Assembly (NCBI RefSeq): GCF_000372725.1
Contig: NW_005202428.1
Span: 248,001 to 312,000, forward strand
Direction: 5' to 3'
DNA from: Emiliania huxleyi CCMP1516
Taxonomy: Eukaryota
Length of the DNA: 64,000 bases
Shown here in pieces: positions 1,428 to 60,423 of the stretch. The notes under the pieces were generated by a model. It did not search any database. It had not been told where the DNA came from and saw only the letters and a program-made list of their open reading frames with translations. Numbering within the stretch: the first letter of the stretch is position 1; every line of letters starts with the position of its first letter. The position numbers and the translations under genes are program-made.

Positions 1428-4400
1428 ATGCCAAAGCCTCTCGCGCCAGGCCCGGTCGCCCTCCCGCTCGTGGGCGCCCTCCCACAGATCGGGCTCGGCA
1501 TGCTCGCGCCCGGCGTCGCCGAGCAGCCGCACCGGCGCCTCGCTGCACTGTCGCAAACGTATGGCGACGTGATGACGGTCAACTTTGGGCGGGAGCCCTG
1601 GCTGGTCCTCTCCTCGCCCGAAGCTGTTCACGAGGCATTTGTGACCAAGGGCGGCGATTTCGCCGGCCGGCCTCAGGTGGCGTCCATGTCGCTCTCCGCG
1701 GGAAGCGGCAGGGCCGGCTTTGGCCGACCGCTGCCGGACGCGGGGCTTCGCGAGCTGCGCAGGGCCGCGTACTCAACGCTCTTCTCGGACGAGGCGGTCG
1801 CCGCCAAGCAGTCCGAACTCGAGGCGGAGGCGCACCTGCTCTCCGACCATCTCCTCGCCACGAGCGGGACAGGCGAGCCTCTCCGGCCGTCGCTGCGCCG
1901 GTGCGTCGGGAACATGGTGCTGCGCTTCGCCTTCTCGTCTCGCGTCCCGTACGCGAGCGAGGAGGGGGCCGCCGCGCCGCCCGCCCCAATCGCAGAGCTG
2001 CTGCGCCTGACCGAGGCAATCTGGGACAGCCTCGCCGCCACGCCCACGACCGTGCTCGACCTGCTCGGTGTCCTAGACGCCGAATACGTATTCATGTACC
2101 CCAACCAGCACTCGAGAGGACGCGTACTCAGCCGTAATCCGCTGTATTCAGCTGTGTGCAGCTGTATTCACTGTCTTCCTCTCCGTTGTATTCACGCAGT
2201 GCTCTGAATACACTGCACAATACCGTCTCCACGCCCTCATGTCGGCGTACTTCCACGTAGGCTCGGTGTGCCGTCCGACAACGCCGCACGCGAGCCGCTG
2301 AGGCGGCTCGTCGGCCAGAGAGACGCCGTGCTCCGGCAAGTCATCGCCGACCGGCGGGCGCAGCGGCGAGGGAGCGCCAGCGTCGCAGCCGCGTCGCCAG
2401 CGTCAGACATGCTCGACGTGCTCCTCGCATCCGACCGTAGAAGCGGAAGAGACGTACTCTAGTAGTCCGACCGGCGATCGAGAGGACACGGGTGCAGCTG
2501 TACTCTCATCTCCGTTCCTCTGCATTCACTGCATTCGCCTCCCTCGTCTTCGCGCGGTGCTCTGAACACACACTGCACAAGACGGTCTTCCCGCCCTGAG
2601 GTTGGTGGGTTCACAAGGCAGGTCTCCGACGGGGGGGTGTCCACCTAGCCTAACCCAGATCGTACCTTGCCTTACCTTAGGCCTCCGACCTGCCCGAGGC
2701 AGATGTGCTCTACGCGCTCGTCGATTTGTTCGTCGCGGGCGAGATCACCCGAGATCACCCGAGGTCACCCGAGGTCACCCGAGGTCACCCGAGGTCACCC
2801 GAGATCACCCGAGATTGTTTGTCGCGGGCGAGCCGCCACGCCACGTACACGCCACCCGCCTGCCACCCGCACCCGCACCTGCACCCCACCCGCCCTTTGC
2901 ACCTGCACCCCACCCGCCCTCTGCACCTGCACCCCGAACCTGCACCCCACCCACAACGCGCCGTGTCTCCGCGCGCCGCAGGCGTCAGCACGGTCTCGAC
3001 AACGCTCGAGTGGCGCCTCCTCCTAGATGGGGACCCGAACCCACCCCCCTACCCCCCTAGTAGCCGAACCTCTCGAGCGCCGCGTTGGTAGGCTCCTCCT
3101 ACTCACCGCGAGATCACCCTAGCCCACCCGAGCTCACCCGAGATCACCGCGAGATCACCCGAGATCACCCGAGAGTAGGCTCCTCCTCCTCACCGCGAGC
3201 CAGCCGCTCGTCCAAGAGCGGGCTCGCTCCGACGCCCTCTGCGCCGGGTCGGGGTACGTCGCCACCGCGCGCCGCCGCCTCGCCTCGCTTCTTGCCCGCC
3301 GCAATCGACGCCCCGGCCCCATCGATGGCCAAGCCCCTTGCCCCCTCACCGCCGCCTCCCTCGCCCCCGCTCCCCCGCCCGCCACCGCGACCCCCCTTTT
3401 GATCAGGTACGTGGGCGCGCTCACAAAGGAGGTGCTCCGCGCTAAGCCGCCGCTCTTATTGCCACGCACGGCGACCGTGGAGACGAGCTTGCGCGGGTTC
3501 CGCGTGCCGAGGGGGTGTGTCGTCTACGTCAACAACTGGGCGCTCGCCCACTCGGAGGCGAGAGGAGCCGAGAGGAGCCGAGAGGAGCCGAGAGGCAGCC
3601 TAGAGGAGCCGAGAGGAGCCGGGAGGAGCCGAGAGGAGCCGAGAGGAGCCGAGAGGAGCCGAGAGGAGCCGAGAGGAGCCGGGAGGAGCCGAGAGGAGCC
3701 GAGAGGAGCCGAGAGGAGCCGAGAGGAGCCGAGAGGAGCCGAGATAGCCGAGAGGAGCCGAGGCGAGCCGAGAGGAGCCGAGAGGAGCCGAGAGGAGGCG
3801 AGAGGAGCCGAGAGGAGCCGAGAGGAGCCGAGAGGAGCCGAGATAGCCGAGGCGAGCCGAGGCGAGCCGAGGCGAGCCGAGGCGAGCCGAGGTGGTTGCC
3901 CGCTGTCCTCCAGTGCCCTCTCCTCCTCTGTCTCTCCCTCTGCCTCTCCCTCTGCCTCTGCAACGGGCGACGGGCGACCCGGCGGCGGCTCTCTCGCGAC
4001 CCGGCCGAGCGCGACGCATGAGCCCGACGCGGCTGCGATAGGCGCACTGGCACGAGCCCTCTGCGTTTCGGCCGGAGCGGTGGCTGAGAGAGGAGCGCGG
4101 CGCGGCGCGCGGCGCGGCGTCGTGCAAGTTCATCCCCTTCTCGGTCGGCCAGCGGGCGTGCCCTGGCGTGCGGCTCGCCGAGGCGGAGCTGGAGGCGGCC
4201 TCACGCGTGCTGCTGCGCTCGCTGCGCTGGCGGCGGGCGGGGCGCCTCCCCGTCGACCTCGGCGAGGAGTACGGGCTCACGCTGGCGCCGGCCCTGAAAC
4301 AGAGCCTTCGCTTCTCGCGGGTCGCGGGGGAGGCGGCCGGCGGCGGCGGCAGCGGACGGCGCGCGAGGGCCGCCGCGCCGACGATGAAGGTGGGCCGTGG

Positions 4401-4641
4401 CGGCGAGAGCGACGGGCGGCCTCGCCGCGCCACACGTCGGCAGCAGATCGCTAGTGTGGAGGAGGCGGGCGCGGTGGCGGGCGAGCGGCTGGCTGAAGCG
4501 GGCAGCGATCGGCGCGGCGGCTGGCGGGCGAGCAAGGCGAAGGGGAACCGACGCAACCGGCGCTACGAGAATCGGCTGCTACGAGGGGCGGTGGGGGAGT
4601 GGACGGGCGGCGAGCCAGATGATGATGCAGATAGCTCTTAG
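1428..4641 (+). CDS. Cytochrome P450, 7 exons (inferred introns 2063-2260, 2427-2680, 2739-2981, 3013-3178, 3254-3406, 3558-4041)
   Basis: Splicing joins the APGPxxLPLVG hinge, I-helix DLFVAG(V)ST, ExxR (EVLR), FRPERW and the heme motif FIPFSVGQRACPG in one frame. The start could be 1362. Confidence 0.88.
2072..2260 (+). mobile_element. ~180-nt introner-like element, copy 1 (P450 intron 1)
   Basis: CCTAGACGC...CACGTAG flanked by the 9-nt direct repeat GCTCGGTGT (2063-2071, 2261-2269). Aligns end to end with 50951-51127. Confidence 0.8.
2436..2621 (+). mobile_element. ~180-nt introner-like element, diverged copy 2 (within P450 intron 2)
   Basis: Shares GCTCTGA..CACTGCACA..GTCTTCCCGCCCTGAGGTTGG and the terminal CAG with the other copies. 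Flanked by GCATCCGAC / GTCTCCGAC. Confidence 0.65.
3559..3890 (+). repeat. Intronic decamer tandem repeat (GAGAGGAGCC)n
   Basis: About 30 visible units inside P450 intron 6. Confidence 0.95.
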
Positions 4642-4701
4642 CTTTGGCGCGCAACACCCATCGGGCAAATGTTTGTATTATTACTATTCGACGGGGACGC
4701 C

Positions 4702-9121: not shown

Positions 9122-12100
9122 ATGAGTGGCGAAAGTCCACCCTACCACTCTGTAGCCGAACCCAGTCGCCTTCCGATGATGGTGGAAAGGGCGATGGGTG
9201 AAAGGGCGCCGCGCGACGAGGACAGGGGCTCCCGTGTCAGATCTGGCGGCAGCAGCAGCGCACCCTCCCCGGGCATCCTGCTGGCCATCTCGGGTCCCTA
9301 TGCCGAGCGCAACTTCCAGATTCCGGCCGCGGGCGGCCTCATCGGGCGTTCGCGAAAGTGCACGCTCTCGCTGCTGCACGACTGTGAGGTGAGCCACAAC
9401 CACGCGCTGCTGGAGGTGGTGCGCGGCCACCTCTGCATCCGCGACGTCGGCTCCACCTTTGGCACCTACCTGAACGACAAGCGCCTCTCAGAGCCCAAGC
9501 GCGCCTCCGAGGCGCACAAGCTCAAGCCGTGCGACTGCATCAAGGTGGGGCAGACCTGCCTGCGGTGGAGGCCGGCGCAGGTGCTCCGCTCCTCGTTCGA
9601 CGTGTCGGTGCCGCGGGAGCCCATGCCGCTCACCGAGGTGGGATCGACTGTGCGCGCGCGCGCCTCCGCCGGCCCTGCGGCACCCGGGCCGACGCAGCTC
9701 AACTTTGTGGCGAGGCTGCTGTCGAGCGAGGGGCGGCTGTGAACAGCGTCTCTTCACACCTGTTGCTGTGAACAGGCGAGGCTTCTGTCGAGCGAGGGGC
9801 GGGCGGCAGGGCCGGACTCGCTCTCGCGCATGCTGCTCGCCCTCAAGACCTTTGAGGCGCAGCACGTGGATGCGGTCGCGGCGCTCAGAAAGGCGCCGTC
9901 AAAGCCCTTGTGTTGCCGCTGAGCTAGTCCCCTCCCCCGGTCGCCTAGCCTCTGCGCTGCCTGGCGAACGCCTGTATGCCATGCGCGCGGACCACGCTTG
10001 CGTGGATGCGTGGCTGGCAGGCTGACCCGTGTGCGAGGTCACCCGCGCACGGGGAAGCTTGTCGCCCCACCGCAGCACGCCGCACCGCACCACTCACTTG
10101 CACATCACTCACTTGCCGCCGCACGCCTCTGCGCACCGCACGCACGCAGCGCCGGGTGGCCTGGAGCGGGGGGTGCTTGCAGCTGCCCCCGCGTCNNNNN
10201 NNNNNNNNNNNNNNNNNNNNNNNNNNNNNNNNNNNNNNNNNNNNNNNNNNNNNNNNNNNNNNNNNNNNNNNNNNNNNNNNNNNNNNNNNNNNNNNNNNNN
10301 NNNNNNNNNNNNNNNNNNNNNNNNNNNNNNNNNNNNNNNNNNNNNNNNNNNNNNNNNNNNNNNNNNNNNNNNNNNNNNNNNNNNNNNNNNNNNNNNNNNN
10401 NNNNNNNNNNNNNNNNNNNNNNGGCGGTCGGACGCCTCCTTCCCCTGGATGCGGCCGCGTACTGGCACAAGCTGACCGCGCCGCAACTCACCTCCTCCGC
10501 GGCGTTAGGCGTTGCGCACGCCGCCTCCCTCACGCACCCGACCGCCCCGCGAGCCTGTCGGGTTGCCGCGGGCCGCCGCCATCGTCTCCTCTGCTCTAGC
10601 GGCGAGCGGCGCCGCCGCCGGAGCCGGAGGTAATAGTACTAGTAATAAAAATAGTAATCGTGATAGGAATAGGAATAGGAATCGTAATAGGAATAGGCGG
10701 CGGCGGAGGCGGCGGCGTGGCGCTCAGCCTCTACTCTGACGAGCCGGAGGTTGCACGAGATTGCACGAGATTGCACGAGATCACACGAGATTGCACGAGA
10801 TTGCACGAGATTGCACGAGCCTCTACTCTGACGAGCCCGAGGTTCGTGTCCGCGCACCCTCCGTACTCTCTCTCCTCTCCCTCTCCCTCTCCCTCTCCCT
10901 CTCCCTCTTACTCCCTCTCCTCTCCCTCTCCCTCTTACTCTCCCTCTCCCTCTCCCTCTCTCCTCTCCCTCTCTCCTCTCCCTCTCCCTCTCCCTGCCGC
11001 GGCCGTGGGCAGAATGTGCGGCACTCTGCACACTCTCGCCACCGCCGCGGATGCGCCTGCTCGCAGGTAGCGCGGCTGCACGAGCTGGCGCGAGAGCTGC
11101 AGCTTCTCCGCTCCGACGCCGCGATCCTGTGCGGACGAGATTGCGCGAGATTGCGCGGGATTGCACGAGATCGCACGAGCTCGCACGAGATTGCTCGAGA
11201 TTGCTCGAGACTGCACGAGATTGCACGAGATTGCACGAGACTGCTCGAGACTGCACGAGATTGCACGAGATTGCACGAGCTTGCTCGAGCTAGCACGAGA
11301 TTGCACGAGCTTGCACGAGATTGCACGAGATTGCACGAGCTTGCTCGAGATTGCACGAGCTTGCACGAGATTGCACGAGATTGCACGAGCTTGCACGAGA
11401 TCGCACGAGTCGCACGAGATTGCTCGAGATTGCACGAGATCGCACGAGCTCGCACGAGATTGCACGAGCGATCGCACGAGATTGCACGAGCTTGCACGAG
11501 ATCGCACGAGATTGCACGAGCTTGCTCGAGATTGCACGAGATCGCACGAGCTCGCACGAGATTGCACGAGCGATCGCACGAGATTGCACGAGCTTGCTCG
11601 AGATTGCACGAGATCGCACGAGATTGCACGAGCTTGCTCGAGATTGCACGAGCTTGCACGAGATTGCACGAGATTGCACGAGCTCGCACGAGCTCGCACG
11701 AGATTGCTCGAGCTAGCACGAGATAGCACGAGCTAGCACGAGATTGCACGAGCTCGCACAGCGCGTCTGTCGGGGATGCTCCTCCCCGCTTGCGCACAGC
11801 CTCTGAGGAGCCGCCGCCCCCCCTGCTCCCTGGCCAACAGGCGCCGCCCGCGGCTGGCGCCTGGGACATGTCCAGGACACGTCCGCGACATGTCGCCGAC
11901 GCGTTCCGCAGGTGCGACGCCCTGCCTTCGAGCCGGAGGAGAGACGCCTCCACCGCTCCTGCACCGCTCCTGGACCGTCCCGCAGGCGCGACGCCGCGCC
12001 TGCACGCGGGCTGGCGGCGTCCCTCACACCCCCTCCNNNNNNNNNNNNNNNNNNNNNNNNNNNNNNNNNNNNNNNNNNNNNNNNNNNNNNNNNNNNNNNN

Positions 12101-18581: not shown

Positions 18582-18654
<73 letters not shown>

Positions 18655-20862: not shown

Positions 20863-20920
<58 letters not shown>

Positions 20921-21499: not shown

Positions 21500-21545
<46 letters not shown>

Positions 21546-22703
21546 TTTCGCCGCGCATCCCCTCGGCGGCGATCGGCGTCGCTACGACGGGGAGCCCGTA
21601 CCGCCACGCGTCGACAACCTGTTCACAGCTGCAGGTGTGAAGAGACGCTGTTCACAGGTACGGCTACCTAGCCACGAGCGCCGACCAGCCTTGCCCTTGA
21701 TCCCTGCGCCGTACCGCAGCGGCGCGAGCAGCACGCGCGACGCCGCCAGCACGTCGAGGCTGGGCGCGTAGCCGCAGACGTGCAGGCCCGTGTCGGGCGA
21801 GTGCAGGCGCTGCACCGCTGCCGTTGGGTACGCGCCGTAGATGCGCAGCTGCGCCTGCGGCATCCTGGCGCGGATGCGCGGCCAGATGTCGCTCGCAAGC
21901 CAGCGAACAGCGTCGACGTTGGGGGGGTGCTTGAACCCTCCGACGGTGACGAAGTCTGCGCGCGCACCAAAGCCGTTCGCGCGGCCGTATCCGAAGCCCC
22001 GATCGCCTGGCTGCGCGTCGGGCGCCGCCTCGGCGCAGAAGAAGGAGGCGAGGGCGAGCTTGTGCGAGGGGATGCCGTAGGAGGCGGCGAGCAGCTGCTG
22101 CTCCACCGGCGAACAGACCAGGGTGAGGTCGGAGCGATGAACCGCCGCCAGCTCGCGCAGCAGGTCGCTGCTGCCTGCCGAAGGCGTGTGTGCGAGCGCG
22201 GCCGAGATCGCAGCGTCCGACGAGGCGCCTTGCTCGAGCGTCTGCTCGACGACGAGCTGCCTGCCTCGGCGGAGCGCGTGCATGTCCTGCATGTCGAGCA
22301 CGCGCAGCGCGGCGGGGGCGAGCTCGCGCACCCGGAAAGAGAAGGCCTCCTCGGTGAAGAAGCGGTCGAAATTTCCGACCACGTCCGGCGCCGTGCGCTC
22401 AAGCACTCGCGCGAGCTCCGCCTCGCGGTTGGGCGGGCATTCGTACGCCTGGACGCCGCGCGACTGGAGGCGCTCCACGTATGCGCTCTTGGGCGCCGAC
22501 GACGCCGCGAAGGAGCAGTCGTAGCCCCACCGCTGGAAGGCGTGCAGCAGCGCCTCCGTGCGCACGCCCGCGGCGGAGGAGTCGGGCTCGGGCCAGAGCG
22601 AGGAGAGGAAGAGGCACGAGGCGAGGCGGCCGCCGCTGAGCGAGAGCGTGGGCAAGCGCGCCGCAGCTCGAGCGGAGCAGCGCGTCGCGCCAGCGGCAGT
22701 CAT
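21145..22703 (-). CDS. GT4-like (Glyco_trans_1_4) glycosyltransferase; intron 21619-21689
   Basis: WPEPDSSAAGVR, DRFFTEE, LDMQDMH, GGFKHPPNVDA and LAPLRYGAGIKGK|VVDAWRYGLPVVATPIAAEGM. Contains a poly-Gly insert. Confidence 0.85.
21619..21657 (-). mobile_element. 39-nt acceptor cassette in the GT4 intron
   Basis: The reverse complement reads CTGTGAACAGCGTCTCTTCACACCTGCAGCTGTGAACAG. Confidence 0.85.
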
Positions 22704-27703: not shown

Positions 27704-30700
27704 ATGGTGGTGACTCTCGTGGCCACCGGCCTCCTCCTACCAACGCCGGCTCTCCGTCAGCTCAGAAGCGGCGTGCCATTGTCCAGCCTCCTCGATGACT
27801 TGGCGGAGGAGGCCTCAAACTCGTGGCTCATGCGGTTCCTCAACCGGCCAAAGGAGGACGCGGCGCTGCAGTACGAGCAACAGGGGTACAACACGCTTGA
27901 AGGCATGAGCACCCGCCTCGAGGTGGAGCGCTCGCCCATCTCCGAGCAGCCGGTCATGGACTCGGGGGGGTGCTGACCTCTCTCACCCGGCGAGACCCGA
28001 CTAGTCCGGCGGACCGATGATAGGTCATGTTCACGACGAGCCTCGACGGCACCGATCCGAGCTTTGATTTCGAGCGATGGGAGGTCCACCGCTCGCAGGC
28101 CCGGTACGGACGGCTCGTGCTTGGCATCCTCTTTGGGAAAACCACGCAGCGGATCGGCCCGACCGTGCTGGCGGTCTGCCTCTTCTCGTCGCTCGTGTTC
28201 GCATACAACAACGTCTTCCTGGCGGCGACGCAGTTCATCGCGGTGAATCCGCTCTACCCGGAGCTGCAGCTGCCGCTGACGCCGTTCGAGCTCACCGCGC
28301 CCGTCCTCGGCCCGCCGCCCGCCTTCCGTGGCTGATCTCGGCTGATCTCGGCTAATCTCGCGGCTGATCCCGGCTGATCTCGGCTGATGTCGAGCCGTAG
28401 GCTTGCTGCTCGTCTTCCGGACCGACACGGCGCCGCCCGCCCGTCGCCCTTGCCACCTCAGCCCGCCGCCGCACTTTGCCCGCCGCCACCCTTAGCCCGC
28501 CTCCGCCCTTAGCCCGCCTCCGCCCTTAGCCCGCCTTCGCACTTAGCCCGCCTTCGCACTTAGCCCGCCTTCGCACTTAGCCCGCCTCCGCCCGCTCCAG
28601 GCGTACGAGCGCTTCAGCCTCGGCTCGCAGCTCGCGTGGGAGATCGCGGCCCTCTGTCAATTAATTAGCCATCACGTTAATGAAATCAGGCTCGCAGCTC
28701 GCGTGGGAGATCGCGGCCCTCTGTCAATTAATCAGCCATCACGTTAATGAAATCAGGCTCGCAGCTCGCGTGGGAGATCGCGGCCCTCTGTCAATTAATC
28801 AGCCATCACGTTAATGAAATCAGGCTCGCAGCTCGCGTGGGAGATCGCGGCCCTCTGTCAATTAATCAGCCATCACGTTAATGAAATCAGGCTCGCAGCT
28901 CGCGTGGGAGATCGCGGCCCTCTGTCAATTAATCAGCCATCACGTTAATGAAATCAGGCTCGCAGCTCGCGTGGGAGATCACGGCCTTTGTCAATTAATT
29001 AACCATCGTATGAATGAAATCAGGCTCGCAGCTCGCGTGGGAGATCACGGCGAGCATGCGCTCCCTCATGCGGCGGCTGACCGCCTTCACGAGCCCTGAG
29101 CTCTTCTCGGACGGCGAGATATAGCCGAGATAAGCCGAGATGCAGCCGAGATACAGCCGAGATACAGCCGAGGTAGCCGAGGTGTAGCTGAGGCGTAGCC
29201 GAGATAGCCGAGGTGTAGCCGAGGTTGGACGGCGAGCGCGCGGCGGCGGAGGACGTGTCCACGACACGCCCACGACACGTCCACGACACGCCCACGACAC
29301 GCCCACGACACGTCCACGACACGTCCGCGACACGTCCGCGACACGTCCACAACACATCCGCGACACGCCCACGACACGTCCGCGACACGCCCACGACACG
29401 TCCGCGACACGTCCACGACACGTCCGAGACACGTCCACGACACGTCCGCGACACGTCCACGACACGTCCGAGACACGTCCGAGACACACCCCCGCAGGCG
29501 AGCGCGCGGCGGCGGAGGACCTGATCCAGGCGTGCACGCTGGTCCACGGCTGGATCATGACCTCGTACCTGCGCGGAGGGCTCGACCGCCGCCGCTCGGC
29601 GCCCATCGACGAGATGCAGGAGGCGCTGCTGCGCGCCGCGCTCGGCGTGGAGGAGGGGGAGGAGGAGGAGGAGGGGGGCGGCGAGGCGCGAACCGATGCC
29701 GCGGAGCCGGCACCGGCCCCGTCGCCTTACCTGTGGATCTCGGCCATGGCGGTTGGCGTCTCGCAGCGGCTGCCTGGCCTGACGGACCAGGAGCGGCCAT
29801 ATCTCCCCATATCTCCCCATATCTCCCCATATCTCACTGCCCGGCCTGACGGACCAGGAGCGGCCATATCTCCCGATATCTCCCCATATCTCCCCATATC
29901 TTACTGCCCGGCCTGACGGACCAGGAGCGGCCATATCTCCCCATATCTCCCCATATCTTACTGCCCGGCCTGACGGACCAGGAGCGGCCATATCTCCCCA
30001 TATCTCCCCATGTCTCCCCATATCTTACTGCCCGGCCTGACGGACCAGGAGCGGATCGCGATGGACGACCTCCTCACGACGGCGGCCACGAGATTTCTTT
30101 TTCGGACATTTCTTTCTTTTGTGCCGACGGGGATTCTTCCGTTTCTAGGTGGACCACGCAACACCGATTTCTTGGAGCACTTGGGCGCAGCCGATTTCTT
30201 CTTTCTTCGTGCGTAGGTGGCCGCCGACCTCGCAAAGTGCGAGAAGCTCGTCTCGACCCCGATCCCGCTCGGCTACACCCGCTCGTCGGTCCGCCGCCCC
30301 GTTGTGGCCAGGTGGCCTCCCGAGTTTCCCCGAGATTCTCCGAGATCATCCGAGCACGAGTTGGGGCGTAGGTCCGGTTCCTCTGGATCTGGATCACGCT
30401 GCTGCCCTTCGCCCTCTCGCGCACGTTCGCCGACTTCCAAGCCGGCACGTGGTGGGAGGACAAGCCGAGGTGACCCGAGACTGCCCGAGATCACCCGAGA
30501 TCACCCGAGATTAGGCACGTGGTGGGAGGACAAGCCGCTCGCCGAGCTGCCCGTGCTGCTGACCACGATGCTCTTCATCTCCTTCATCTTCCTCTCCATC
30601 GAGGACACACACATACGCACACACGCACACACGCACGCACGCACACACGCACGCACGCACACGCGCACACACGCACGCACGCACGCACGCGCACACACGC

Positions 30701-42825: not shown

Positions 42826-43041
<216 letters not shown>

Positions 43042-43362: not shown

Positions 43363-44301
43363 ATGCGAGGGCGGTGCCGTGAATGCACCGGCTGCCTGGC
43401 GACGGATTGCGGCACCTGCCGCGAGTGCCTTGACCGGCTGCGGTTTGGCGGTAAGGGGGTTCGCAAAAAGCTGTGCCGCCGTCGCAAATGTCTAAACCCT
43501 CAGCTCGCAGGGCGTATCCATGTCGCCGCCAAGCCCGCCGCCGCCGCTCCCGCCGCCACCGTTTCTGCCGCCGCCCCGCCGCGGGATGCAATGCTGCCGC
43601 TTCTCATCCGGCAGGCGCGAGCGCACCTCTCGCGGCTCAGGCGCCTCCCTGCTCCGCACGGCTACCTCCTCGCCTCCGTCCTGGCGTCCTCCGCCTCCGC
43701 CGTCGCCACCTCAGTCTCCGCCGCCTCCGCCTCCACTTCCGCCTCCGCCGCCTCCTCCTCCTCCGTCCCCGCCTCCGCCTCCGCCTCCGCATCCACTTCC
43801 GCCTCCGACGGCGCCGCGGCCCTCGCCTCCGCCTCCGCCTCCTCAATTCCGCCCTCGCCCGTCCCCGGCTGCTTCTGCGCCCTCCCAGCCAGCCCGGGCG
43901 CCTTCCAGACCCTCGCCGTCCCCGACGCCGCCGCCGCCCCCGGCGGCACGTTCCATCGCTGGCAGACAGGTATGCTCACACGTGCGATCCCCGGCCCCCC
44001 CGCCGTCGCCGTCTCCGCCACAGGCAGCGCGCGGGGTGGGGAGTCGTGCCGGTCGCCGCTGCGCAGCGAATGGGACGAGCTGCTCGCCCCCGCAACCCGC
44101 GAGGGCGGCGCGGAGGAGACTGGCTCTGTTGCCGCCGCCGTTCCGCTGGCGCCGTTGACTGCAGCCAGCCCCGCACTAGCCGCACCGCTGCTCCCCGCGC
44201 TCGCCTCGACTCTCGCCCGGACTTTGGCCTCCGACGGCGCCGCGGCCCTCGCCGCCGCACCCTCCGCCGCCGCGCCCGGGCGGGCAAAGCGTGCTACTTG
44301 A
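43363..44301 (+). CDS. CXXC zinc-finger protein with Ala/Ser-rich tail (43318-43790 duplicates 40865-41340)
   Basis: zf-CXXC pattern CxxCxxCxxxxCGxCxxC..FGG..CxxRxC. Confidence 0.55.
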   Translation: MRGRCRECTGCLATDCGTCRECLDRLRFGGKGVRKKLCRRRKCLNPQLAGRIHVAAKPAAAAPAATVSAAAPPRDAMLPLLIRQARAHLSRLRRLPAPHGYLLASVLASSASAVATSVSAASASTSASAASSSSVPASASASASTSASDGAAALASASASSIPPSPVPGCFCALPASPGAFQTLAVPDAAAAPGGTFHRWQTGMLTRAIPGPPAVAVSATGSARGGESCRSPLRSEWDELLAPATREGGAEETGSVAAAVPLAPLTAASPALAAPLLPALASTLARTLASDGAAALAAAPSAAAPGRAKRAT

Positions 44302-44682
44302 GGTGAGTATGTGAACGGCGCCTCTTCACGGCACGCGCTGTGAGCAGGTGGGGCGCCATCGTCGACGAGTGGGCAGAGTAGCCTAGATGCCGGATTGCGG
44401 ATCCGTGTACTCCGATTGGCACTCAAACACACATTCAGCGGTATGCAGCTGTCTCCATTCATACAGCGCGTTGGCTCTCGGAATTGCGCTGCACGCACCC
44501 TTCGCATTCCCGCCCTGACTGTGGCATTCTCGTGAGGTCAGGCAAACGAGTTGGATCTGCTGGAGGGGGCCGGTAAGTGCCATGCGGCAGACCCGGCGGC
44601 ACCGCCTTCGCCGTTTCCCTCGCCGCCGGAGCTTGCCCCTCCTTCCCGGATCTCGCCACCGCTGCTCCCCTTTGCATCCCAG

Positions 44683-45800: not shown

Positions 45801-47627
45801 TCAAGCTCTGCGCCCCGCGCCGCCGTCCACGAGGGCCTGCAAGCCGCGCCGTAGCCTCGCCGCCGCCTCTCGCGTCTGCTCGAGCGGCAAGTTGGCGTAG
45901 CAGACGCGGATGTGGCCCGGCGCCCCGCACGCAGATCCGGGGATGAGCGCGACGCCGTGCTCTTCCGCGAGCGTCCGCACCGCGGCCACGTCGTCAGCCG
46001 CGTGCGGCGGCAGCCGCGCCACGAGGTAGATTGCGCCTAGCCACATTCATGCTGAGCTCGTGCGAATCGGCTCGTGAAAAGGTAGCCGCGCCGCGTGGCA
46101 GAGGGCGCCGGAGCCGCCCTGCACCGCGCCATCGCCGAGCGGCGCGAGGGCGGCGAGGACGAGCGCCTTCTGCTCCGCGAGCCCCGCAACGCGCTGCGAC
46201 ACCCAGCCGCGGCCGGCGGCGAGGGCGCCGAGGGCGACCTTTCGTTGGCAATGAACAACGATCCGCCCTGGTTCTGGCGCCAGCCACGGGGCGCCGAGAG
46301 CGGCCAACCTTTTGCGAGGCGATCGACGGGCAGATGGCGATGGTGTCTTGCACCTTCAGCATCTCGGGCGCGAGGGCGGCCGGGAAGGAGACGTACCTGG
46401 TTGGGAAGCGAGCATCATCAGTCACTGTGGATCGCACCTCCGGCGCGAGGGCAGTGACGGAGGCGTCGGACATGGCGGCGGCGGCGGAGGAGGGGCTCCC
46501 CAAGAAGAAGAAGAAGAAGAAGAAGGACAAGGCGCGCGCCGAAGCCCCGCGAAGCCCTCCCCTCTCTCTCTCTCTCTGTGCTACATGTCCATCACCGACT
46601 GCGAATGACGTACTCAATCCGTTCCTTCGGTAGGCCGGGGAGCAGACACGCACCCCACTCGCCAGCCCATCATGCCGAACGCCTTCGAGAAGGAGAAGAC
46701 GTTGATCACGTGCTCGCCGGAGACGCACTCGTGCGGCGCCTTACGGGACGTGTCCGGGACATGTCCGGGACATGTCCCAGAGCAGCGCCGCCCAGCCTCG
46801 CGACTCATCCGCCTCGCCCGCGTACTCGAAGTGCTCGTAGGTGTTGTCCACCACCTGCAGGACACGTGCCGGACATGACCCGGACATGACGCGTGCGGAG
46901 AAGTGCTCCTGCCGGCTGTCCGCCACCAGCCAGACGCCGTGCGACGCGCAGAGCCGGCTCGCCTCGTCCAGCGTACCGCGCGGGATCATCACGCCCGTGG
47001 GGTTGCCTAGGATGCAGAAGCGGTGAATGGTGAATGGCGGAGGAGAGCGCAGTCATGTGTCGCCACGCCGGTGGCGTTGCCAGGGTTGACCAGCGTCAGC
47101 ATCCGGAGCGGAGGCCTATCGCCGCGGGCGCGCGCCTCCAGCTCCGCCCTCAGCGCGCCGATGTCGGGCTGCAGGTCCGGCAGCGAGGGGGGCAGCCACA
47201 GGTCGAGCTGTGAGCCGGTCATCTGCAACGCCATGAGGTGGTTGAAGTAGTACGGTCGGAAGAGGGCGGCGGCGTCGCCCGCGTCGAGCAGCGAGAGCAC
47301 CACGTTCGTGTACGCCTGGTTCGCTCCCGCGGTCACCATCACCTCGCCGCCGTCGATGCCGTTCTCGACGCGCAGCTTCTCCTTGAGCGCGGCGCGCAGT
47401 TCGGGAAGGCCGTCGTCGGGACCGTAGAGGCTGGTGCTCCGCTCGCCCATCGCGGCGACGCCCGCGGCCAGTGCCGCCTCGGGTGGCGGCCAGTGCACGA
47501 TGCCCTGTGCGAGCGAGAGGACGCCCTCCCTGCCACGCAGCATCTGCTGCATCTGCACAATGCAGGGAGTGTCGGTGGCGCGGACGCGCTTGCTGGCCTG
47601 CGTGGCCATGCTGCGGGCGCCACGCAT
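45801..47627 (-). CDS. PLP-dependent aminotransferase class I/II, multi-exon (e.g. introns 47007-47080, 46855-46926)
   Basis: LSLAQG, YGPDDGLPELR, VTAGANQA, NPGNPTG, DNTYEHF, SFSKAFGMMGWRVG (PLP lysine) and HIRVCY. Confidence 0.88.
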
Positions 47628-48780: not shown

Positions 48781-49873
48781 ATGCTCCACTCCGGCGAGTT
48801 CTGGAAGAGGGGTGGCGCAAAGCACGCCGCCCTCATGCCGAGGCGGTTCACTCCCAGCGACGCCGCCGCGCGCCTCCTGGCATCCGGCCCGGAGCGGGCG
48901 CCGCTCCCCGTGCCACGCGACTGGCAGGCGCTCGGCTGGCAGGAGCTGCTGCTCGCGCGCGGCTGGCTGCGCCGCGACGAGTTCGCGGCGGCCGGCGCGG
49001 CGACGCAGGCGGAGGCGGTCAGCCTCCTCTCTTCGGCGCTCACCTACCCGCTCACCGCAGCGGCAGCAGTCGCGGCACTCTGCGCGCCCTCCGAGGGCGA
49101 GCCGCGGCGGATCTGTCTGGTCGGCGCGCGGGCGGAGGCGCTGCTCCCGCCGCACTTTTGGAGCGAGACTCGCGCGCTCGCCAGCGTCTGCGACGCGCCG
49201 CTCGAGATCTCGTTTGTCGGCCCGCGCGCTGCGCCGCCGTCTCCGCCCGCGAGCGAGGAGCCGGGGCTGGCGCTGCTGCGGCCGTCTCGCGGAGAGCTGT
49301 TCCACGAGTCCGCCCTCGGCCGGGCGCTGCTGCTCGGAGGTGGCGGTGGCGGCGGCGGCGCGGCGGGCGGCGCGGCGGGCGGCGCTGCGGGCGGCGCGGC
49401 AGCGGCCGCGTCTCTCGCCGTCAGCGCCTCGAAATCGGGAGGGCTGCTCTCGACGGGGCGGCCGGCGGGGGGAGCGGGCGCGCCGGCGCCCCTGCCCGAC
49501 GCGTTCCTGCTCTTCAACCCGGGGCTCGGCCAGCCCGGCTGGGAGCGCGCGTGGTCGCCGACCTTGACGTACCTGGACATCGTCTCTTCACACCCACTGC
49601 TGTGAACAGGAGCGCGCGTGGTCGCCGACCTTGGCGGCGCTCTCTCGCGCGCGCCGGCCCGTGATCTTGACAGCCTTGGGCGAGGAGGACGCGCGGGCGG
49701 ATGCCGCCTTCTACGCCCGCTGGCTGGAGGAGGAGGGGGGCGACGGAGGCGGGGGCACCGCGCCGGGCGGGCTGCGGTACGCCTCCAACCCGTGGGCCAG
49801 TCTCGTCAACACGGCGGCGGCGGGGGGCGCACCGTCGCGCGCGAACGCGCTCGTCGCAAGCTACACAGTGTGA
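48781..49873 (+). CDS. MSS51-like C-terminal domain protein; intron 49543-49609
   Basis: LTYPLT, LVGARAE, SFVGP, PDAFLLFNPGLG..W.PTL and NPWAS motifs. Confidence 0.65.
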
Positions 49874-50330: not shown

Positions 50331-51870
50331 ATGTCCACCTCCGGCGCACACGACGGCACGACCACCATCACGGTGTTCTTCGAAGGCACGGCCAACCCGA
50401 TACGGCCCGTCGTGACGCAGATCGGCGAGCTGTTTGCGCTCTGCGATGCGCTCGACGTCACGGATCCGCAGGTCGCAGCGGGCGAGGCGAGCCATCTCAA
50501 GATGGGGTTCGATGGCTGTGGTGTCGTCGCGGGCCTGCCAGGTGCGCTCTTTGCATTCGGGCTCGCCCCGCAGTGCGACGCGGTCGTGGCGCGGCTGGAG
50601 GCGCTCGCCTCGTCCTCAGAGGCGTGTCGGCAGCGTCTGTCGGTCAACGTGCTCGGCCTCTCCCGGGGAGGCATCGCGGCGCTCCAGCTGGCGAAGAAGC
50701 TGGAGTCGGCCAGCACCGCGCTGCGCGACCGGCTCCGCCTCGCGCTGCTGCTCTTCGACCCCGTGCCCGGTAACCTCGTCTTCACGGCCCGCCACCTCGA
50801 CTTCCTCGCCGCCGTCGGCATGCCAGGCGTCCTCACCACGGCCAGCGGCGTCTTGGACCTCTCCGCCTCGCCGGTGTCATCAGTGCTTGCCGTGTACCCG
50901 CACGAGCCGCTGCCCGACATCGCCTTCCACGCACCCCTCCTGCCCGCCAGCCTAGACGCGGAATACGGATTCACGTCTTCCAACCAGCACTCGAGAGACA
51001 CGTCTCCGCTGTTTCCGCTGTATTCCGCTGTGTTCACTGTACTCCTATCCGCTGTATTCATGCGTCGCTCTGACCACGCTGCACACCACCGTCTTCCCGC
51101 CCTGAGGTTGGCGTCCTCAGCACGCAGGCCCGCCTACCCGCCCGCCGCGGAGGTGGTCGAGGACGCGACCCTCGGCTGCCACCAGGGAGCCCTCTACCCC
51201 GTCGGCCTCACGCGCGGCTCGCCCGTCGCCGCCGCGTGCCGCCTGTCCGCCCACCGGCTCGTCGAGGCGCTGCGTGAGAGAGGGACACGGCTGCGGCCGG
51301 CCGCCGGCGGCGGCGGCGCGTTCGCCTCCGAGTGCCTGCGCGATTGCGAGGCGGCGCTGCGCGAGCCAGAGCGGGCGAGCCGCCGGATCGCGCATTGCGC
51401 CGGCGGGCGATGGCGCCGAGACGTGGCCGAGATGTGGTCGGGTCGCCGTTGCGCCCGGGGCTCTCCTCCTCCCTCTCCGCCTGCTCCTCCTCCTCCCCCT
51501 CCTCCTCCTCCTCCTCCTCCTCCCCTCCACTCACACCACCTCCCTCCCTCCCAAGGCCCGGCCGGAGCGACTGTGCGGCGCGCGAGGTCGGCGCGCCTCC
51601 TCAACCGCCACCACCTGTGAACAGCGTCTCTTCACACCTACTGCTGTGAACAGGTCGGCGCGCCTCCTCAACCGCCACCACTTGGAACTACTCGCCGCCG
51701 AGGCGCCCGGCGAGGCACGCGCGCGCGTCGAGGCGGCGGTGGCGCAGCCCTCGGCGATGCCTCTCTTCCTGCTCTCGGTGCAGCGCGGCGGAGGCGAGGG
51801 CGGGGGTGCATCAGCCGCGCAGCGGCAGGCGCTGGATGCGCTGGCGTGGCTAGAAAGGAGGGGAGTCTAG
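50331..51870 (+). CDS. Alpha/beta-hydrolase-fold protein (GxSRG type); introns 50942-51127, about 51407-51555, 51587-51653
   Basis: VFFEGT, FDGCG, VLGLSRGG nucleophile elbow, LFDPVPG and GCHQG. Confidence 0.7.
50951..51127 (+). mobile_element. ~180-nt introner-like element, copy 3
   Basis: Full-length similarity to 2072-2260. Flanked by GCCCGCC(AG)/GCCCGCC(TA). Confidence 0.8.
51615..51653 (+). mobile_element. 39-nt acceptor cassette in intron 51587-51653
   Basis: Lies between perfect 28-nt direct repeats (51587-51614, 51654-51681). Confidence 0.88.
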
Positions 51871-55352: not shown

Positions 55353-58300
55353 AGGCTAGTGCCATTTCACTCTGACACGCTAATCTTGAAAACGTCTCCA
55401 ACGGAGCTCCGTGTTGCTTCCAGCGCCCTCCCCCGCGCTTCCTGCGGCCATGGCCGATGATCCTAGGAAGAGAGGTCATCTGGCTACCGCGAGAGCGACC
55501 CAACTCGTCGACATCGTCCGATGATGGTGCCGCAAAGTCAGCCTTCGGAGGCTATCGTGGGGTGGAGCCGGCAGTAGCCGTGACATGTGGTTCCACCACC
55601 CCTCGTAGGCTTTGCCTCTGACCGCCACCGTTCCCAGGCTGCCTACTGGGATGGAAAGGAAGGCTCGGCGAGCGTATAGAAGCGTGCTCGACCTCGTCGT
55701 GGCAACCTGTACGGCAGCGCTGGTAGGCGCGATGAGCGTCGTGCCACCTGACCCGAGACAGGTCGCAGGCGTCGTACCGAGCGCGTCGAGACCGTGTCCT
55801 GATGTGGTCTGCACGGGTGAGTCACGTCGGCGTCAAAGGAGCGACGTGTGACCTGTCAGAGCTTGATCTCTGATCTCAGCGGCGTCGAGTCGTCTCCGGC
55901 GCGCAACAAATGTACCTCCCCAGGACGCGCAGAGGCAGCTGCGACCCCGCCGAGTAGACGGCGGCACACCGCGCCACCTGCTGTGTGCCGCCGTCTACTC
56001 GGCGAGGTCGCAGCTTCCACTGGAAGGCACCGAGAGGTACATTTTTCGCGCAATGGTCAAAATCAAGGTTTTGTAACGCGGGCTGTGCCACAGTGAAATG
56101 GCACTAGCCTGAGCGTCACAGCTCGGTGATCGCGCAGGCCGGACACACCACTGTAACGGCCATTCCGGGCCAACAGCGCTGCGACCGCGAAGTGGCGGTG
56201 GACATGCTCCCATGTCGCCGACGCGGCGCCGGAGTGGCCGGCGCTGCTCGCCGCGACCACGACGGCTACTCTGATACGGGGTCTCTGGGCCGACCCGTCC
56301 TACCCGACGGTGGCACTCTTCCACGTCTCGCTCATGACACATGAGAAAAATTCTGAAACGGCCTTGGAGTGCAGCAGAGTCACCGACGAGTCGGTCCGCG
56401 TGCCTCCTCGTGTCCCGTACCGTTCTCACACATCCATAAACTCACTAAGGCCCCACTGAAGCAAGCCCTCAATCCTGAATCCTCAGATTTTACGGGGTAG
56501 ATTAGGACGCTGTCCACCCCCTATCAGAACCCTAGGGGTACCCCAAGTTTCTGAACGCATGCCGAGACGCTCTATATCTCACTCGAACTGTGAAGGGGAG
56601 GGCGGAGGGGCAGCGGTGGAAACGCTCCACACCCACACGGCCGGCCACACCTGCGCCCGTCCCCCCTCGAGCCCCACACGCACACGGCACGGCGGCGGGG
56701 CCTATCCCGCGCGAGGAGGGCCCGAAGAGAAGAGCTGGTCGATTCGCTCTGCGGCAGAGCCGTCTGCCGGCGCAAGCAGCGGCTGCTCGTCCGCCTAACG
56801 AGTGAGTAGGGCGGCTCAGGAAAGGCTTGTCGTGAAACGCATGCTGGGCCGCCCGCCCGCCCGCCCGCCTCTTCGCCCCTTTTCCTACCCCTCCGCCGCC
56901 CCCGCCCCCGCCGCCCGCTCGTTGCCTACAGGCAGAGCAGCCGCGACGAGGTGCAAAGGCTGAGACTGGCGCGACCCTTCCCCCCCCGCCCCGCCCGCAG
57001 GTTGCCTCGCCCTCCTCCTCCTCCTCCTCCCTCGCCCCCGCCTCCCCCTCCTCCGCCGCCTCTCCCGCCTCCCCCGCCGCCTCCCCCGCCGCCTCCCCCG
57101 CCTCCTCCGCCGCCTCCGCCTGCCCCGCCTCTCTCCACTCATCCCGCCGCCCGCGCGTCGCCGCGGGCTCCGCCAACACCGGCTGCGTGAGCGCCGGCGC
57201 AATCGGCACTTGCTCCCTCTCGGGCGGGGACAGGTCGCGGTCCACACGCGGACGCGGCGGCGCTGCCTCCGGCTCTGGCGGAGCCCCGTCCAGCCGACCA
57301 ACCACAACCTCGCCCGCCTCGGCTGCCTCCGCCGCCACCCCTGCCGCCGCTGCGGCGTCGAAGCGGCCGCTCAGCGCGGCGGCGGAGGCGCGAGCGATGT
57401 CCGCCAGCGGCACCATCACCGGCACCTAGCCACGAGCAAGGTAATCACACCACCAGCTGTGAACAGGCGCCACCGCCGGCAGTTAGCCACGAGCAACCCC
57501 CACCCGCAAACCCGCACCCTCGAGGCCCACCCTCCCCTACCCCCCCGGTACCCGAACCCACCCTCGAGGACCACTCCCCGCGCTGCCTGCCAGCGGCCAC
57601 CGCCGCACACACCCGGCAGGGCACGTCTAGTACAGTCGAGTACAGTCTAGTACAGTCTAGTGCAGACACGAGGCACTACTAGCAGAGCCGCACGCACCCC
57701 GCAGGGCACGTCTCGCATCTCGACGCCAACAGCCCCGTCGGCGTCGGCGGCGTCGCCCGTCAGCGGCGAGCGGGAGTACCGTCGGTGGTTTCGTCGGAGC
57801 ATCCACTGCCTGCGAGAGTAGCCGAGAGTAGCCGAGAGTAGTCGAGACTAGTCGAGACTTAGCCGAGATGGGCCCGTCAGCCGTGGCTTCGTCGGCGCCG
57901 TGACACACACAGGTCAGAGTGTGAGAGTCGTGCAGTGCGCCGTGCATCGCATGAATACACGAAGACGGTGCACACAGCCGAGGAATGCCGAGTCAGCGAC
58001 ATTTGTGCAGCCGAATGCAGCCGAGGGCGCGTCCCCGCGCGCGTGCCAGCTGGAAGACGGCCGGTGTGAAAGACAGCACGAGCCCGCACTAGCCCGCATT
58101 GTCGCTTCTAGAGGCCTCTGCCGGAGAGCGCCGCCGCAGAGCAGCGCCGCCAGCGCCACGAGTCCGAGGAGGGACGGGGAGGGGATCGTCTCGGCGTCGA
58201 GGCAGTCGACGCGCCTGTACACGTCGCCTGCGAGCAGGCCGCAGGCGGAGGTCTGCAGGCCGGGAGCTGCAGACGCTCTCTCTGGCCGCAGGCCGGGGTC

Positions 58301-59010
58301 TGCACACGCTCTCTCCGCCGCTGCTCTCGCCCGCAGCTCTGCCGAAGCAGCGCGGGAGGAGCCGAGGCGCCCCGCGGTGAGCACAGAGAGGCGGGAGGCG
58401 TCTCGGAGGAGTCCGGGCGCACCGAGCTGCTCGCCGCCTCCAAAGAATGCTGCCTGGAGCGGGCAGTTGTTCGCCCGGTTGTCCGTTCCGCAGGAGCCGT
58501 CGCCCTCGCAGAGCTCGCCTCTCTCAGTCCGACGCGAGCAGCCGCGACTGTAGGACCGGCGGGCAGAAGCGGGGTGTCAGGCTGTGTGATCTCTGGTGTG
58601 GCGGCGGGCGGTGCGCGCGGATCGGCGCGCGGGCATCAAGGAGGGCTGGGAGCGAGCCGTGGCAGCAGCTCGAGCTGTGCCGGCGACGGACAGAGCTCGG
58701 GGTCGATGAGCTCGAGGCACGTGCGGCACGAGTAGCCGTTCGCGCAGGCGGCGCAGGGCAGCAGCCGAGTGTCACGCCACATATTAGGGTCGTATGGAGG
58801 GCGTCTTGGTGGGCGCGGGCGGCTCGGCCTCCCTGGCGCCGGCTGTATTTATTGGCACTGGCCTTCTTTTATTCTTTTATTTTGAGCTAGCCTTCGATGT
58901 TCGGACAGGTATTTTTCTTCCCCTGTGCTATAGCGCCGGCTCACACATCCGCCTGCCGACCACAGACTCTTGTTACCAAACCTCAGGCCGTCTGCCTTCG
59001 ATTCGCGAGC

Positions 59011-60423
59011 ATGGCAGCGAGCGTATCACTGCCGATGCGTGAGCCGTGCTACGTCGCGGTCGGCGTCATGACCGTGCCTCACTACCGGAATCGGCGCGAC
59101 GCCGCGAGGCAGACGTGGATGACGGGCAGCAACGTCGGCTCGACGGTGGTCGTCCGGTTCCTCATCCGCGCTGGCGGCTTGCATCCGGACGTGCTTGCCG
59201 AAGCGAAGCGGGAGCAGGACGAGCACGGTGACATGACGTTCCTCCCAGTGGCATCGGAGCACGGCAGCCCGCCGCAGCGTGGGCGCGTGCTCACGCTGCA
59301 CGCCTGGACGAGGCGTGCGACCGCGGTCTGCCCGACGGCGCGGTGGGTGAGCAAGGCGGACGACGACGTGTACATCGTCACCGTGGACTGGGAGGCGCAG
59401 CTGCGGATGATCGCCGCGGGACGCGAGGGACGCGCCATGCTGCACGGCAAGGTTGTGTGGCACAACTGGAACGTTAAACACTTTGTGCCGCACTCGTTTG
59501 ACTACAGCTACAACCCGGACAACTGGAGGCGCGTCATCGACTACCTCGGCGGCGACGAGAGCAGGGCGCGCTTCCCGGACGAGCGCCGCCGCTTTGAGCT
59601 CTGCAGGACGCACGGGGCCCGCCAGTGCGAGTGGTGCCCTGCCGAGGCAGAGTGCACCGGCCCGTTCTAATCAGTTAATTACTGAATGAATCAATGAACT
59701 CATTAGGTGCCCTGCCGAGGCAGAGTGCACCGGCCCGTTCTAACCAGTTAATTACTGAATTAATCAATGAACTCATTAGGTGCCCTGCCGAGGCAGAGTG
59801 CACCGGCCCGTTCCCCTTCCCCACGGGCTGGCTGATCACCATGTCGGCGCCGCTCGCGCGCGCCCTCGCCGGCTCGCCGGCGGTGGCCGCGGAGGTGGCC
59901 CGCGCGGAGCGGCTGACCCGCTCGTGGGGAGGGCCTCTCGTAGAGGACGTGTGGCTGGGCTCGGTGTGAACGGCGTCTCTTCACACCTGCTGCTGTGAAT
60001 AGGCCTCTCCTGGAGGACGTGTGGCTGGGCTCGGTGGTGCACCGGGCGCTGGCAGACTGGCCGGTGCTGTGGGTGCAGATGGACTTTGCCCACCAGTTCA
60101 ACGGCGACTGGCCGGCCGTGTGCCGCGCCGAGAAGCGGCCGCGCAGCTGCGGCTACGAGTTCAACACCACCGTCGTCTACCACAACAAGCGGACCCGCAA
60201 GGTGCACGCGCACGTCGCCGGGGAGGCGGGCGCGCACGTGCCGCCGCAGCCCGCGCTCAAGTGCGCCGCGTCCGCGGAGTGGCGGTACCTCAACCACCAC
60301 ATGGCCAACTTTGCGGAGTACGTGCGCCGGGAGAGACGGCCGAGCGGCAGCGGGCTCTGCGTGCTGTACGAGCCGCGCTTCCTCGTGCCGCCCAAGCACA
60401 ACCGCCTCTTCCACCACCCGTAG
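59011..60423 (+). CDS. GT31-like glycosyltransferase; introns 59634-59779, 59933-60002
   Basis: RRDAARQTW, VRFLI, EQDEHGDM, SKADDDVY, PFPTGWL and EDVWLG. Confidence 0.85.

Follow-up and report, generated by a model that had tools for sequence, protein, structure and literature searches.

To our knowledge, the origin of most new introns cannot be traced. Introners have a described mode of action: a target duplication provides the donor, the inserted element provides the acceptor, the mRNA is restored seamlessly and GC or GA donors are tolerated, at least in the available passages of PMC9860276 and 10.1101/2020.10.14.339549, and the introns described here behave in the same way. For the bloom-forming alga Emiliania huxleyi, the Gozashti 2022 supplement lists 653 introner elements in 5 families with mean lengths of 70, 70, 37, 37 and 37 nt, and the Gozashti 2025 supplement lists 3 families, one of them annotated '10bp terminal direct repeats, co-opt 5' carry 3''. 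GC donors, at 56-65% in this species, have been ascribed to genomic GC content (PMC4028052); PMC2784329 yielded nothing on intron structure. Here, a window of 64,000 nucleotides from E. huxleyi CCMP1516 (contig NW_005202428.1; coordinates are window positions, forward strand unless stated) was found to hold two intron classes, one formed by a ~180-nt element with a 9-nt duplication and the other comprising ~70-nt introns in which the start of the next exon is copied over ~30 nt, ahead of a ~40-nt acceptor module.

A sequence-only reading of the window had proposed that most introns begin with a copy of the start of the next exon. All nine duplications that it cited were reproduced: exact copies of 6 nt at 3254 and 27953, 9 nt at 2063, 23 nt at 30445, 24 nt at 49543, 28 nt at 51587 and 34 nt at 59634, together with mismatched copies at 9710 (26/27 nt) and 59933 (32/34 nt). 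Its statement on first bases also holds, G opening each of the 16 downstream exons in the P450 (6) and bestrophin (10) models, and the next exon begins with G in 32/33 introns of a curated set that does not take in every window intron. The word 'most' drew more modest support. When these 33 introns were compared with 1024 mismatched intron/exon pairs, a control that the same reading had suggested, 19 exceeded the 99th percentile used as the pass mark and 14 did not, including the GT4 intron it had named (score 3, no significant copy) and 0/3 passing in the gene located at 57-58.8 kb, where one exon begins with T. At least four exact bases are common to the intron start and the next exon in 20/33 introns, and long copies (score of at least 20) occur in 7/33; shared stretches of 3-6 nt are often at chance level. 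The proposed division of labour, in which the copied exon start provides the donor and an insert provides the acceptor, is supported, one bestrophin intron (29791..30048) being different in that its GA donor and its acceptor both lie within the duplicated segment; it has a minisatellite insert, and its exact cut is ambiguous.

The duplication lengths had been read as a single continuum, which does not hold because the 9-nt duplication is that of a classic element, here called F2; the long class is tightly constrained in length. F2 is ~180 nt long, its inverted ends are imperfect and its duplication is fixed at 9 nt (7/8 copies with both ends; 10 left ends found); on its structure it is an ordinary MITE-type introner. 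It forms P450 intron 1 (2063..2260), in which the duplication gives a GC donor, the element occupies 2072-2260 and the junction agrees with the E. huxleyi protein P0001; it is also present in P450 intron 2 (2427..2680), where the sequence places it, with its 9-nt duplication, on top of an older ~60-nt unit, and at 50942..51127, with a 7/9 match between the copies. Of the remaining P450 introns, the third (2739..2981) has 3 nt in common with the next exon, a chance-level match, and an internal 10-bp minisatellite; the fourth (3013..3178) consists of two stacked units with a decayed 12-nt copy; the fifth (3254..3406) pairs its short copy with a GT donor; and the sixth (3558..4041), with 3 nt in common and a minisatellite, is retained in P0001, its spliced form being taken from homologues.

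Within the ~70-nt class, one recurrent acceptor module is here called F1. It follows the exon copy in the FHA-gene intron (9710..9775, 66 nt) and at 51587..51653 (67 nt), both read from the DNA by itself, and in a GT31 intron (59933..60002, 70 nt). A diverged F1 is found at 49543..49609 (67 nt, GA donor) and another, with a weak upstream copy, approximate boundaries and a place outside the curated set, at 44280..44348. The GT4-gene intron (21619..21689, reverse strand, 71 nt) combines F1 with a decayed copy, and a shortened F1 lies antisense to the local gene at 57410..57496, with a ~30-nt duplication (24/30) across an existing acceptor. Several unrelated inserts, as had been claimed, share this layout. 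A bestrophin intron (28623..29023) holds six tandem units of ~67 nt, each a 28-nt copy plus a 39-nt AT-rich module; a GT31 intron (59634..59779) holds two tandem 73-nt units, again ending in a 39-nt AT-rich module; and bestrophin intron 30445..30514 (70 nt) has a 10-bp minisatellite module. Bestrophin intron 27953..28023 is 71 nt long, and five of the six aminotransferase introns (46037..47080, reverse strand) measure 70-74 nt, with decayed copies of up to 28 nt and 4/6 above the 99th percentile. In neighbouring DNA, 152/554 direct repeats are anchored at AG|G (51 and 77 in controls), 112 of the 152 with a unit of 60-79 nt, and many unrelated modules have one layout. Ten of 14 modules besides F2 have no second copy in the 273 kb compared, own tandem copies excluded, and most therefore cannot be called families on 273 kb.

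The splicing of these introns is supported from several sides. The P450 and bestrophin models translate with no internal stop codons, the reading frame being restored by carried or co-opted splice sites; five P450 junctions agree with P0001, and both GT31 junctions agree with homologous proteins. RNA mapping, which the sequence-only reading had put forward as a check, gave joints in contigs from runs presumed to be RNA for at least eight bestrophin introns (27953..28023 and 30445..30514 among them), at least three aminotransferase introns and at least three further introns; for the window F1 introns there was none among the joints listed, and contig ends fall at 49609 and 60002. The RNA joints thus concern non-F1 units, and F1 junctions are supported by homologous proteins and contig ends. 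The names GT4, MSS51-like, hydrolase and bestrophin are that reading's labels, Pfam giving no family for the GT4, MSS51-like and hydrolase ORFs; two other gene labels, SMP30 and ABC-F, are presumptive. It had also proposed a search for intron-less alleles. None was found at any site, and the sole allele pair (L020) carries the GT4 intron; homologous P450s appear to be without these introns. In full-length P450 homologues on contigs of up to 41 kb each junction peptide is present once, which suggests that the P450 introns may have been gained in a lineage-specific manner.

F1 was followed into marine metagenomes, where 123 of ~380 stretches were scanned and most loci came from few assemblies. 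Similar intron sequence was found at no fewer than 109 unique sites in diverse, unrelated genes. Long copies are present at 75/109 sites compared with 0/2152 shuffles, matched copies measure 8-36 nt at most sites, and gapped alignment makes the copy significant at 97/109; a G directly follows the intron at 103/109. The introns are 68.9±3.1 nt long, with 27-36 nt between donor and module core at 84/91 sites. The module itself is 39-41 nt with nearly constant ends, a fixed AG-terminated motif at its 3' end and termini that are direct rather than inverted repeats of 10-12 nt. Similarity between sites is limited to the last ~40 nt of the intron, the first ~30 nt being locus-specific, which makes F1 a poorer fit to the usual introner search rule of whole-intron similarity and not to the introner mode of action. 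The right junction is precise. At the left, the exon copy stops abruptly and gives way to foreign filler (filler identity 0.27, 16 sites), microhomology of at least 3 nt is seen at 11/67 sites against 6.4% expected (p=7e-4), and the 5' segment is equally long in 35 full (30.6) and 32 partial sites (30.8). Tandem units occur at 11 loci and flipped-core variants are also found.

By codon score, 73/84 scored F1 sites are sense to the coding strand; these calls are noisy where the flank is an older intron, and antisense cases were therefore judged by eye, giving 5/109 sites, 3 without a G start, in which the copies begin with C, T or G. Since antisense insertions exist, G|G probably reflects filtering by splicing and not the place of the cut. 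In two cases a whole intron, from donor to acceptor, brings another locus's 5' segment: L035/L048 from L059 (75 nt, 96%) and L033 from L025 (69 nt, 96%). L035/L048 may reflect gene conversion of an existing intron, and the assembly may be chimeric at L033, which sits at the end of a contig. Intron length modulo 3 is unbiased (35/29/31), the intronic copy shows no clear drift to the donor consensus, the F1 pattern has no match in viral contigs and Rfam gave no match in 5 loci. The window contains no intergenic F1 copies, which is weak evidence because ~69% of it is genic by rough count.

In 29/33 window introns the donor and the next exon agree in their second base (p about 1e-6). This agreement links donors of the GC and GA type to the duplication, as had been suggested for the GC donors, and offers a mechanical, testable account of the unusual donors of E. 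huxleyi.

We favour, tentatively and at a little short of an even chance, an origin of many ~70-nt E. huxleyi introns, exon copy and acceptor module together, through retrotransposon-type machinery supplied in trans, which would copy a short module into two nicks ~30 nt apart. The AG end of the module would be joined first and precisely, the other end would be resolved through microhomology to leave 0-16 nt of foreign filler, and fill-in would duplicate the target, with insertion in either orientation. In exons, a copy would survive if its duplication starts at G|G followed by C, T or A, so that it can serve as donor, and if the unit exceeds a minimum of ~63 nt; antisense copies would survive if the duplication itself contains AG|G. 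The long direct repeats would then promote tandem expansion and precise loss, and F2 would form introns separately in the classic manner. F1 shows the retroposon hallmarks of variable duplication, precise 3' junction and ragged 5' junction with microhomology. PMC9977147, in the passages available, reports duplications of variable length for LINEs and Penelope-like elements. Against this reading stand two insertions with no obvious length floor (L085 and window 57410), which still have ~30 nt, the 14/33 window introns that show no significant copy, the failure to find an intron-less allele and a filler that does not co-vary with the internal module variant. Of the staggered-nick insertion put forward earlier, the staggered cut fits the ragged, microhomology-rich left junction; target-primed reverse transcription fares less well, F1 having no poly(A) or simple-repeat tail and Pfam finding no reverse transcriptase, endonuclease or transposase among the 30 ORFs scanned in the window and the 74 scanned out of 225 candidates close to F1 copies. 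A wider proposal is possible, if appreciably short of probable: one process, tied to no single element family, would duplicate ~30 nt of exon and insert any ~40-nt acceptor module from existing introns, would have built most E. huxleyi introns with donors inherited as the exon's first bases, in place of an effect of genomic GC, and would leave repeats that allow tandem expansion or precise loss.

Two other explanations are unlikely, to the same degree. An HUH (Replitron-like) transposase could mobilise F1-type modules, as non-autonomous elements, in the form of single-stranded DNA, giving one precise end, one fuzzy end carrying parental flank and a variable duplication. According to the available passages of PMC10288648, Replitron-1 of Chlamydomonas carries short direct repeats at its termini; one of its ends is precise, the other is fuzzy and stems from the flank of the parent, and its duplications vary. 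F1 shares the direct termini and the variable duplication; the two whole-intron copies with foreign 5' segments, the tandem arrays and the flipped-core variants point the same way. However, filler does not co-vary with the internal module variant as inheritance of parental flank predicts (permutation p=0.45), hairpins are not significant in F1 (z -0.3 to -1.8) and are no stronger than shuffles in two other modules, antisense copies have no fixed target dinucleotide, and the AT-rich and minisatellite modules have no termini in common with F1. The same passages place the signatures in Chlamydomonas only and haptophyte Replitrons in just two species, and no Rep partner was found among the 30 window ORFs and 74 ORFs near F1 copies. 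Alternatively, host repair of staggered double-strand breaks might insert ~40 nt from the 3' end of another intron, selection retaining spliceable products with no dedicated transposon machinery. Such repair agrees with the microhomology and foreign filler seen at left junctions and with the single layout of many unrelated, often low-complexity modules, and in Daphnia break repair accompanied by flanking repeats is an accepted route according to the available part of a review (PMC3443670); yet a single 39-41 nt module with nearly constant ends at so many sites is not predicted by random capture, nor does the precise right junction favour it.

It is improbable that the spliceosome reverse-spliced the 3' end of an excised intron into a sense-strand G|G, with reverse transcription and end joining to finish. 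The precise AG|G junction, the excess of sense sites, the donor-to-acceptor span of the two whole-intron copies and the post-splicing catalysis known in yeast (available passages of PMC11146597) agree with it, but the plain form of the reaction gives no duplication and antisense insertions with ~30-nt duplications are present. Still less credible is a reading in which the copies are no insertion scars and stem from tandemly duplicated exon DNA, or from the adjoining exon having later converted old introns. Intron 29791 does draw both splice sites from its duplicated segment and the arrays indicate active local recombination, but the intron 3' end matches the end of the previous exon above the 95th percentile in 2/33 introns, one strongly (several boundaries being one base off), a module present in many dispersed copies makes up the 3' part and the homologous P450s appear to lack the introns. 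That every case is a cut-and-paste MITE introner with a short fixed duplication is true of F2 and scarcely tenable overall, since published introner duplications are 3-9 nt (PMC9860276, available passages) and F1, with direct ends and long variable copies, has the features of neither MITE nor DDE elements, which contradicts this origin for F1.

The ~30-nt copy plus module is likely the scar of a mobile insertion, which would account for intron gain without gene damage. Introner searches seek whole-intron similarity and 3-9 nt duplications; as the first 30 nt are copied from the intron's own locus, such introns would be missed or mis-bounded by these searches and by gene predictors. From the long repeats at their flanks one would further expect natural populations to show precise loss and length polymorphism of these introns.

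Replitron-1/N1 has in common with F1 the pairing of a precise and a fuzzy end but is 0.9-3.6 kb long with a fixed RG target, and the passages available from PMC10288648 do not report intron formation. Non-LTR and Penelope-like retroelements produce variable duplications and the latter also 5' truncation and partial tandems (PMC8557442 and PMC9977147, in the parts available), whereas F1 is ~40 nt, tail-less and partner-less among the ORFs scanned, and its total unit length is tightly bounded. Break-repair introns of Daphnia and introns from tandem genomic duplication likewise have direct repeats at their ends, but the former combine short repeats with unique inserts and the latter are wholly exon-derived with both sites from AGGT, while here a recurrent module gives the acceptor. 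Published introners, in the available passages, have fixed 4- or 8-nt duplications and often inverted ends, a type that F2 alone fits; here the duplications are ragged, run to ~30 nt and take up almost half of the intron. For the E. huxleyi families of Gozashti 2022 and 2025, duplications are given as '?' (unknown), 'N' (absent), 2 or 4 nt. The distance between the inner GT of F1 and its AG is 37 nt, and on this length the published 37-nt families are likely F1 cores taken for GT-AG introns. Introner families of E. huxleyi are already known; the long duplications are new.

Introns that begin with a copy of the start of the next exon are real and are widespread in the Emiliania huxleyi lineage. 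All nine duplications cited in the sequence-only reading were reproduced, while its broader claim that most introns copy the next exon held for 19 of 33 curated introns, whose scores exceed the 99th percentile set by 1024 mismatched intron-exon pairs, and not for the other 14. The curated introns are a subset of those in the window and come from ten genes, whose models translate without internal stops, one training fragment excepted; the set leaves aside the FHA gene's later introns, the gene at 43-45 kb, the methyltransferase gene and some of the 57-kb gene. Long copies are present in 7/33, the next exon begins with G in 32/33 and the second base of the donor equals that of the exon in 29/33 (chance 0.47, p about 1e-6). 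Donors are GC (20), GT (10) or GA (3), and 13 introns measure 66-74 nt with none shorter. A 14-nt stretch at 28310-28323 is a decayed copy of the next exon; its five mismatches are all intron C against exon T.

Splice joints were drawn from contigs of four sequencing runs (three studies), which are guessed to be RNA. At least eight bestrophin introns and at least six in the 45.6-60.5 kb stretch are joined in these contigs, bearing out the proposed junctions there, but no joint among those listed falls on a window intron of F1, the family in which a ~40-nt acceptor-bearing module lies behind a ~30-nt copy of the next exon's start; contigs start at two such introns (49609 and 60002). In each of the four runs, contig depth is very high over the intergenic repeats at 47590-48700, 50070-50570 and 55540-56530. 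A UniRef E. huxleyi protein matches the first P450 exon at 99%, and the E. huxleyi P450 protein P0001 agrees with five P450 junctions, each duplicated segment being present once; it keeps the sixth intron as read-through and lacks the heme-binding end of the spliced model. Both GT31 junctions are single-copy in three homologues. Likewise, each P450 junction peptide occurs once in full-length homologues (505-642 aa, from contigs as long as 41 kb), which are probably intron-less genomic genes, and a related cluster includes a Chrysochromulina tobinii protein. Among E. huxleyi alleles none lacking an intron was seen, and the GT4 intron is present in metagenome locus L020.

Elsewhere in the window, no introns were seen in the RCC1-repeat genes at 1-950 and 25465-26938, which have 156-bp units; the second gene is a single reading frame throughout. 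A duplicated segment (40900-41340 and 43320-43800) has a CXXC zinc finger match in its second copy, and ORFs on the reverse strand at 32247-34702 carry trypsin and FG-GAP repeats, the latter with several minor Pfam matches.

The F1 module is 39-41 nt long with direct ends of 10-12 nt. Its pattern has five matches in the window against none in shuffles, and diverged copies are also visible at 49543 and 57440. A metagenome scan yielded at least 123 loci (~380 estimated), most from few assemblies; 143 matches, four in the window, were reduced to 109 sites by removing 16 without the usual right end, seven with short flanks and 11 that duplicated a site already counted. G lies next downstream at 103/109, the downstream sequence has a long copy upstream at 75/109 against 0/2152 shuffled pairs, and 97/109 exceed the 99th percentile in a gapped comparison. 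In the 91 sites scoring at least 8, intron length is 68.9±3.1 nt, the donor lies 27-36 nt from the module core in 84, G precedes the donor in 81 and donors are GC (45), GT (30), GA (9) or other (7). Because the coding background after GG differs (C 51%, T 13%, G 18%, A 18%; n=426), GT donors are over-represented and GG under-represented, as a splicing filter predicts.

Both orientations occur. By codon score 73/84 sites are sense. Visual inspection classed 5/109 as antisense; their ~30-nt duplications contain AG|G or reach across an older acceptor, and three have a first base other than G. A sixth case lies at 57410-57496 of the window. The left junction, where copy meets module, is abrupt. 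Among 67 strong, non-tandem sites the copy extends to the module in 35 and ends early in 32, yet the total 5' segment is equally long (30.6 vs 30.8). Decay as the cause of early ends is rejected, since the first 14 nt of partial copies are no more diverged. The foreign filler bears no relation to the exon sequence (identity 0.27, 16 sites with at least 4 nt) and does not covary with the internal variant of the module (p=0.45), and left-junction microhomology of at least 3 nt occurs at 11/67 sites (6.4% expected, p=7e-4). Tandem units are present at 11 loci. Two F1 units are whole introns of a different locus: that of L035/L048 matches L059 (75 nt, 96%) and may reflect conversion, and that of L033 matches L025 (69 nt) and may be a chimera. 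Core-inverted variants at L036, L073, L080, L009 and L097 have short inverted repeats flanking the core and an unchanged AG end direction. In L009 (2300-2963) and L097 a ~360-bp tandem repeat with several F1-like motifs, a possible origin of F1, lies next to an ORF with an HRDC domain. Degenerate telomere-like repeats follow farther on in L009, and the window has an internal G-rich telomere-like array at 38500-38625.

The same layout extends beyond F1. In a 273-kb survey, where the F1 share is inflated because loci collected through F1 were included, 152/554 direct repeats have AG|G as their anchor; two positional controls gave 51 and 77, and random sequence gave 2. The unit is 60-79 nt in 112/152, and in 48/80 of those not flagged as F1, a list that is not free of antisense F1 copies and coding repeats; their modules include AT-rich, 10-11 bp minisatellite, telomere-like and unique sequences. 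Plain tandem duplication is rejected because the 3' ends of curated window introns do not copy the end of the previous exon. Stacked units, in which an acceptor AG is directly followed by a new G[C/T] unit (2427-2680, 3013-3178 and 30082-30216; L002, L032, L075, L114), could form recursive splice sites. A dispersed ~65-nt intron-like family is seen at 35406-35472 and in L006, L021, L029, L035, L048 and L078. A (CA)n-ended family with short repeats at the opposite end (18536-18780, 20723-20966, 30721-30833; L002, L045, L048, L052, L116) forms an inverted pair around the 18.9-20.2 kb ORF and supplies the last bestrophin intron.

Duplication lengths had been treated as one variable class, but the 9-nt case at 2063 belongs to a separate family, F2 (156-189 nt), and is a classic MITE-type introner given its imperfect terminal inverted repeats and 9-nt duplication (7/8 copies with both ends; 10 left ends found). 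For F1-type introns, we suggest that the target would be cut with a stagger, the AG end joined first and precisely and the other end settled through microhomology, with selection for a minimum size and for G|G[C/T/A]. Retrotransposon-type copy-and-paste, compared with variable-duplication retroelements (PMC9977147, PMC8557442), is tentatively ranked first, although it falls short of even odds. An HUH route (compare Replitron-1, PMC10288648) and host break repair (compare Daphnia, PMC3443670) are each unlikely, and to the same degree. No mobilising enzyme was found in 104 ORFs from the window and near F1 copies. Reverse splicing, compared with yeast post-splicing catalysis (PMC11146597), is very improbable.

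Introner duplications are given as 3-9 bp in PMC9860276, whose main text lacks 'Emiliania'; its supplement lists at least 653 E. huxleyi elements in five families (70, 70, 37, 37 and 37 nt), with duplications marked '?' or 'N'. The supplement of PMC12130899 has three families with duplications of 2, 4 or NA, PMC4028052 ascribes GC donors (56-65%) to GC content, and PMC11782384 describes 4-30 bp repeats near introns generally, with 'huxleyi' absent from the accessible text. Comparison also covered 10.1101/2020.10.14.339549, 10.1101/051292, PMC11282704 and PMC2784329. Titles and abstract openings held no description of ~30-nt duplications in haptophyte introns; most subscription papers, among them the 2013 genome paper with its supplements, and the supplements on bioRxiv fall outside that scope and may hold a prior mention. 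Introner-type gain is a known process, and these introns resemble introners in that the donor is co-opted and the acceptor carried by the insert. What sets them apart from described introners is that the duplication is long and ragged, the unit keeps a constant length and the modules are many and unrelated.
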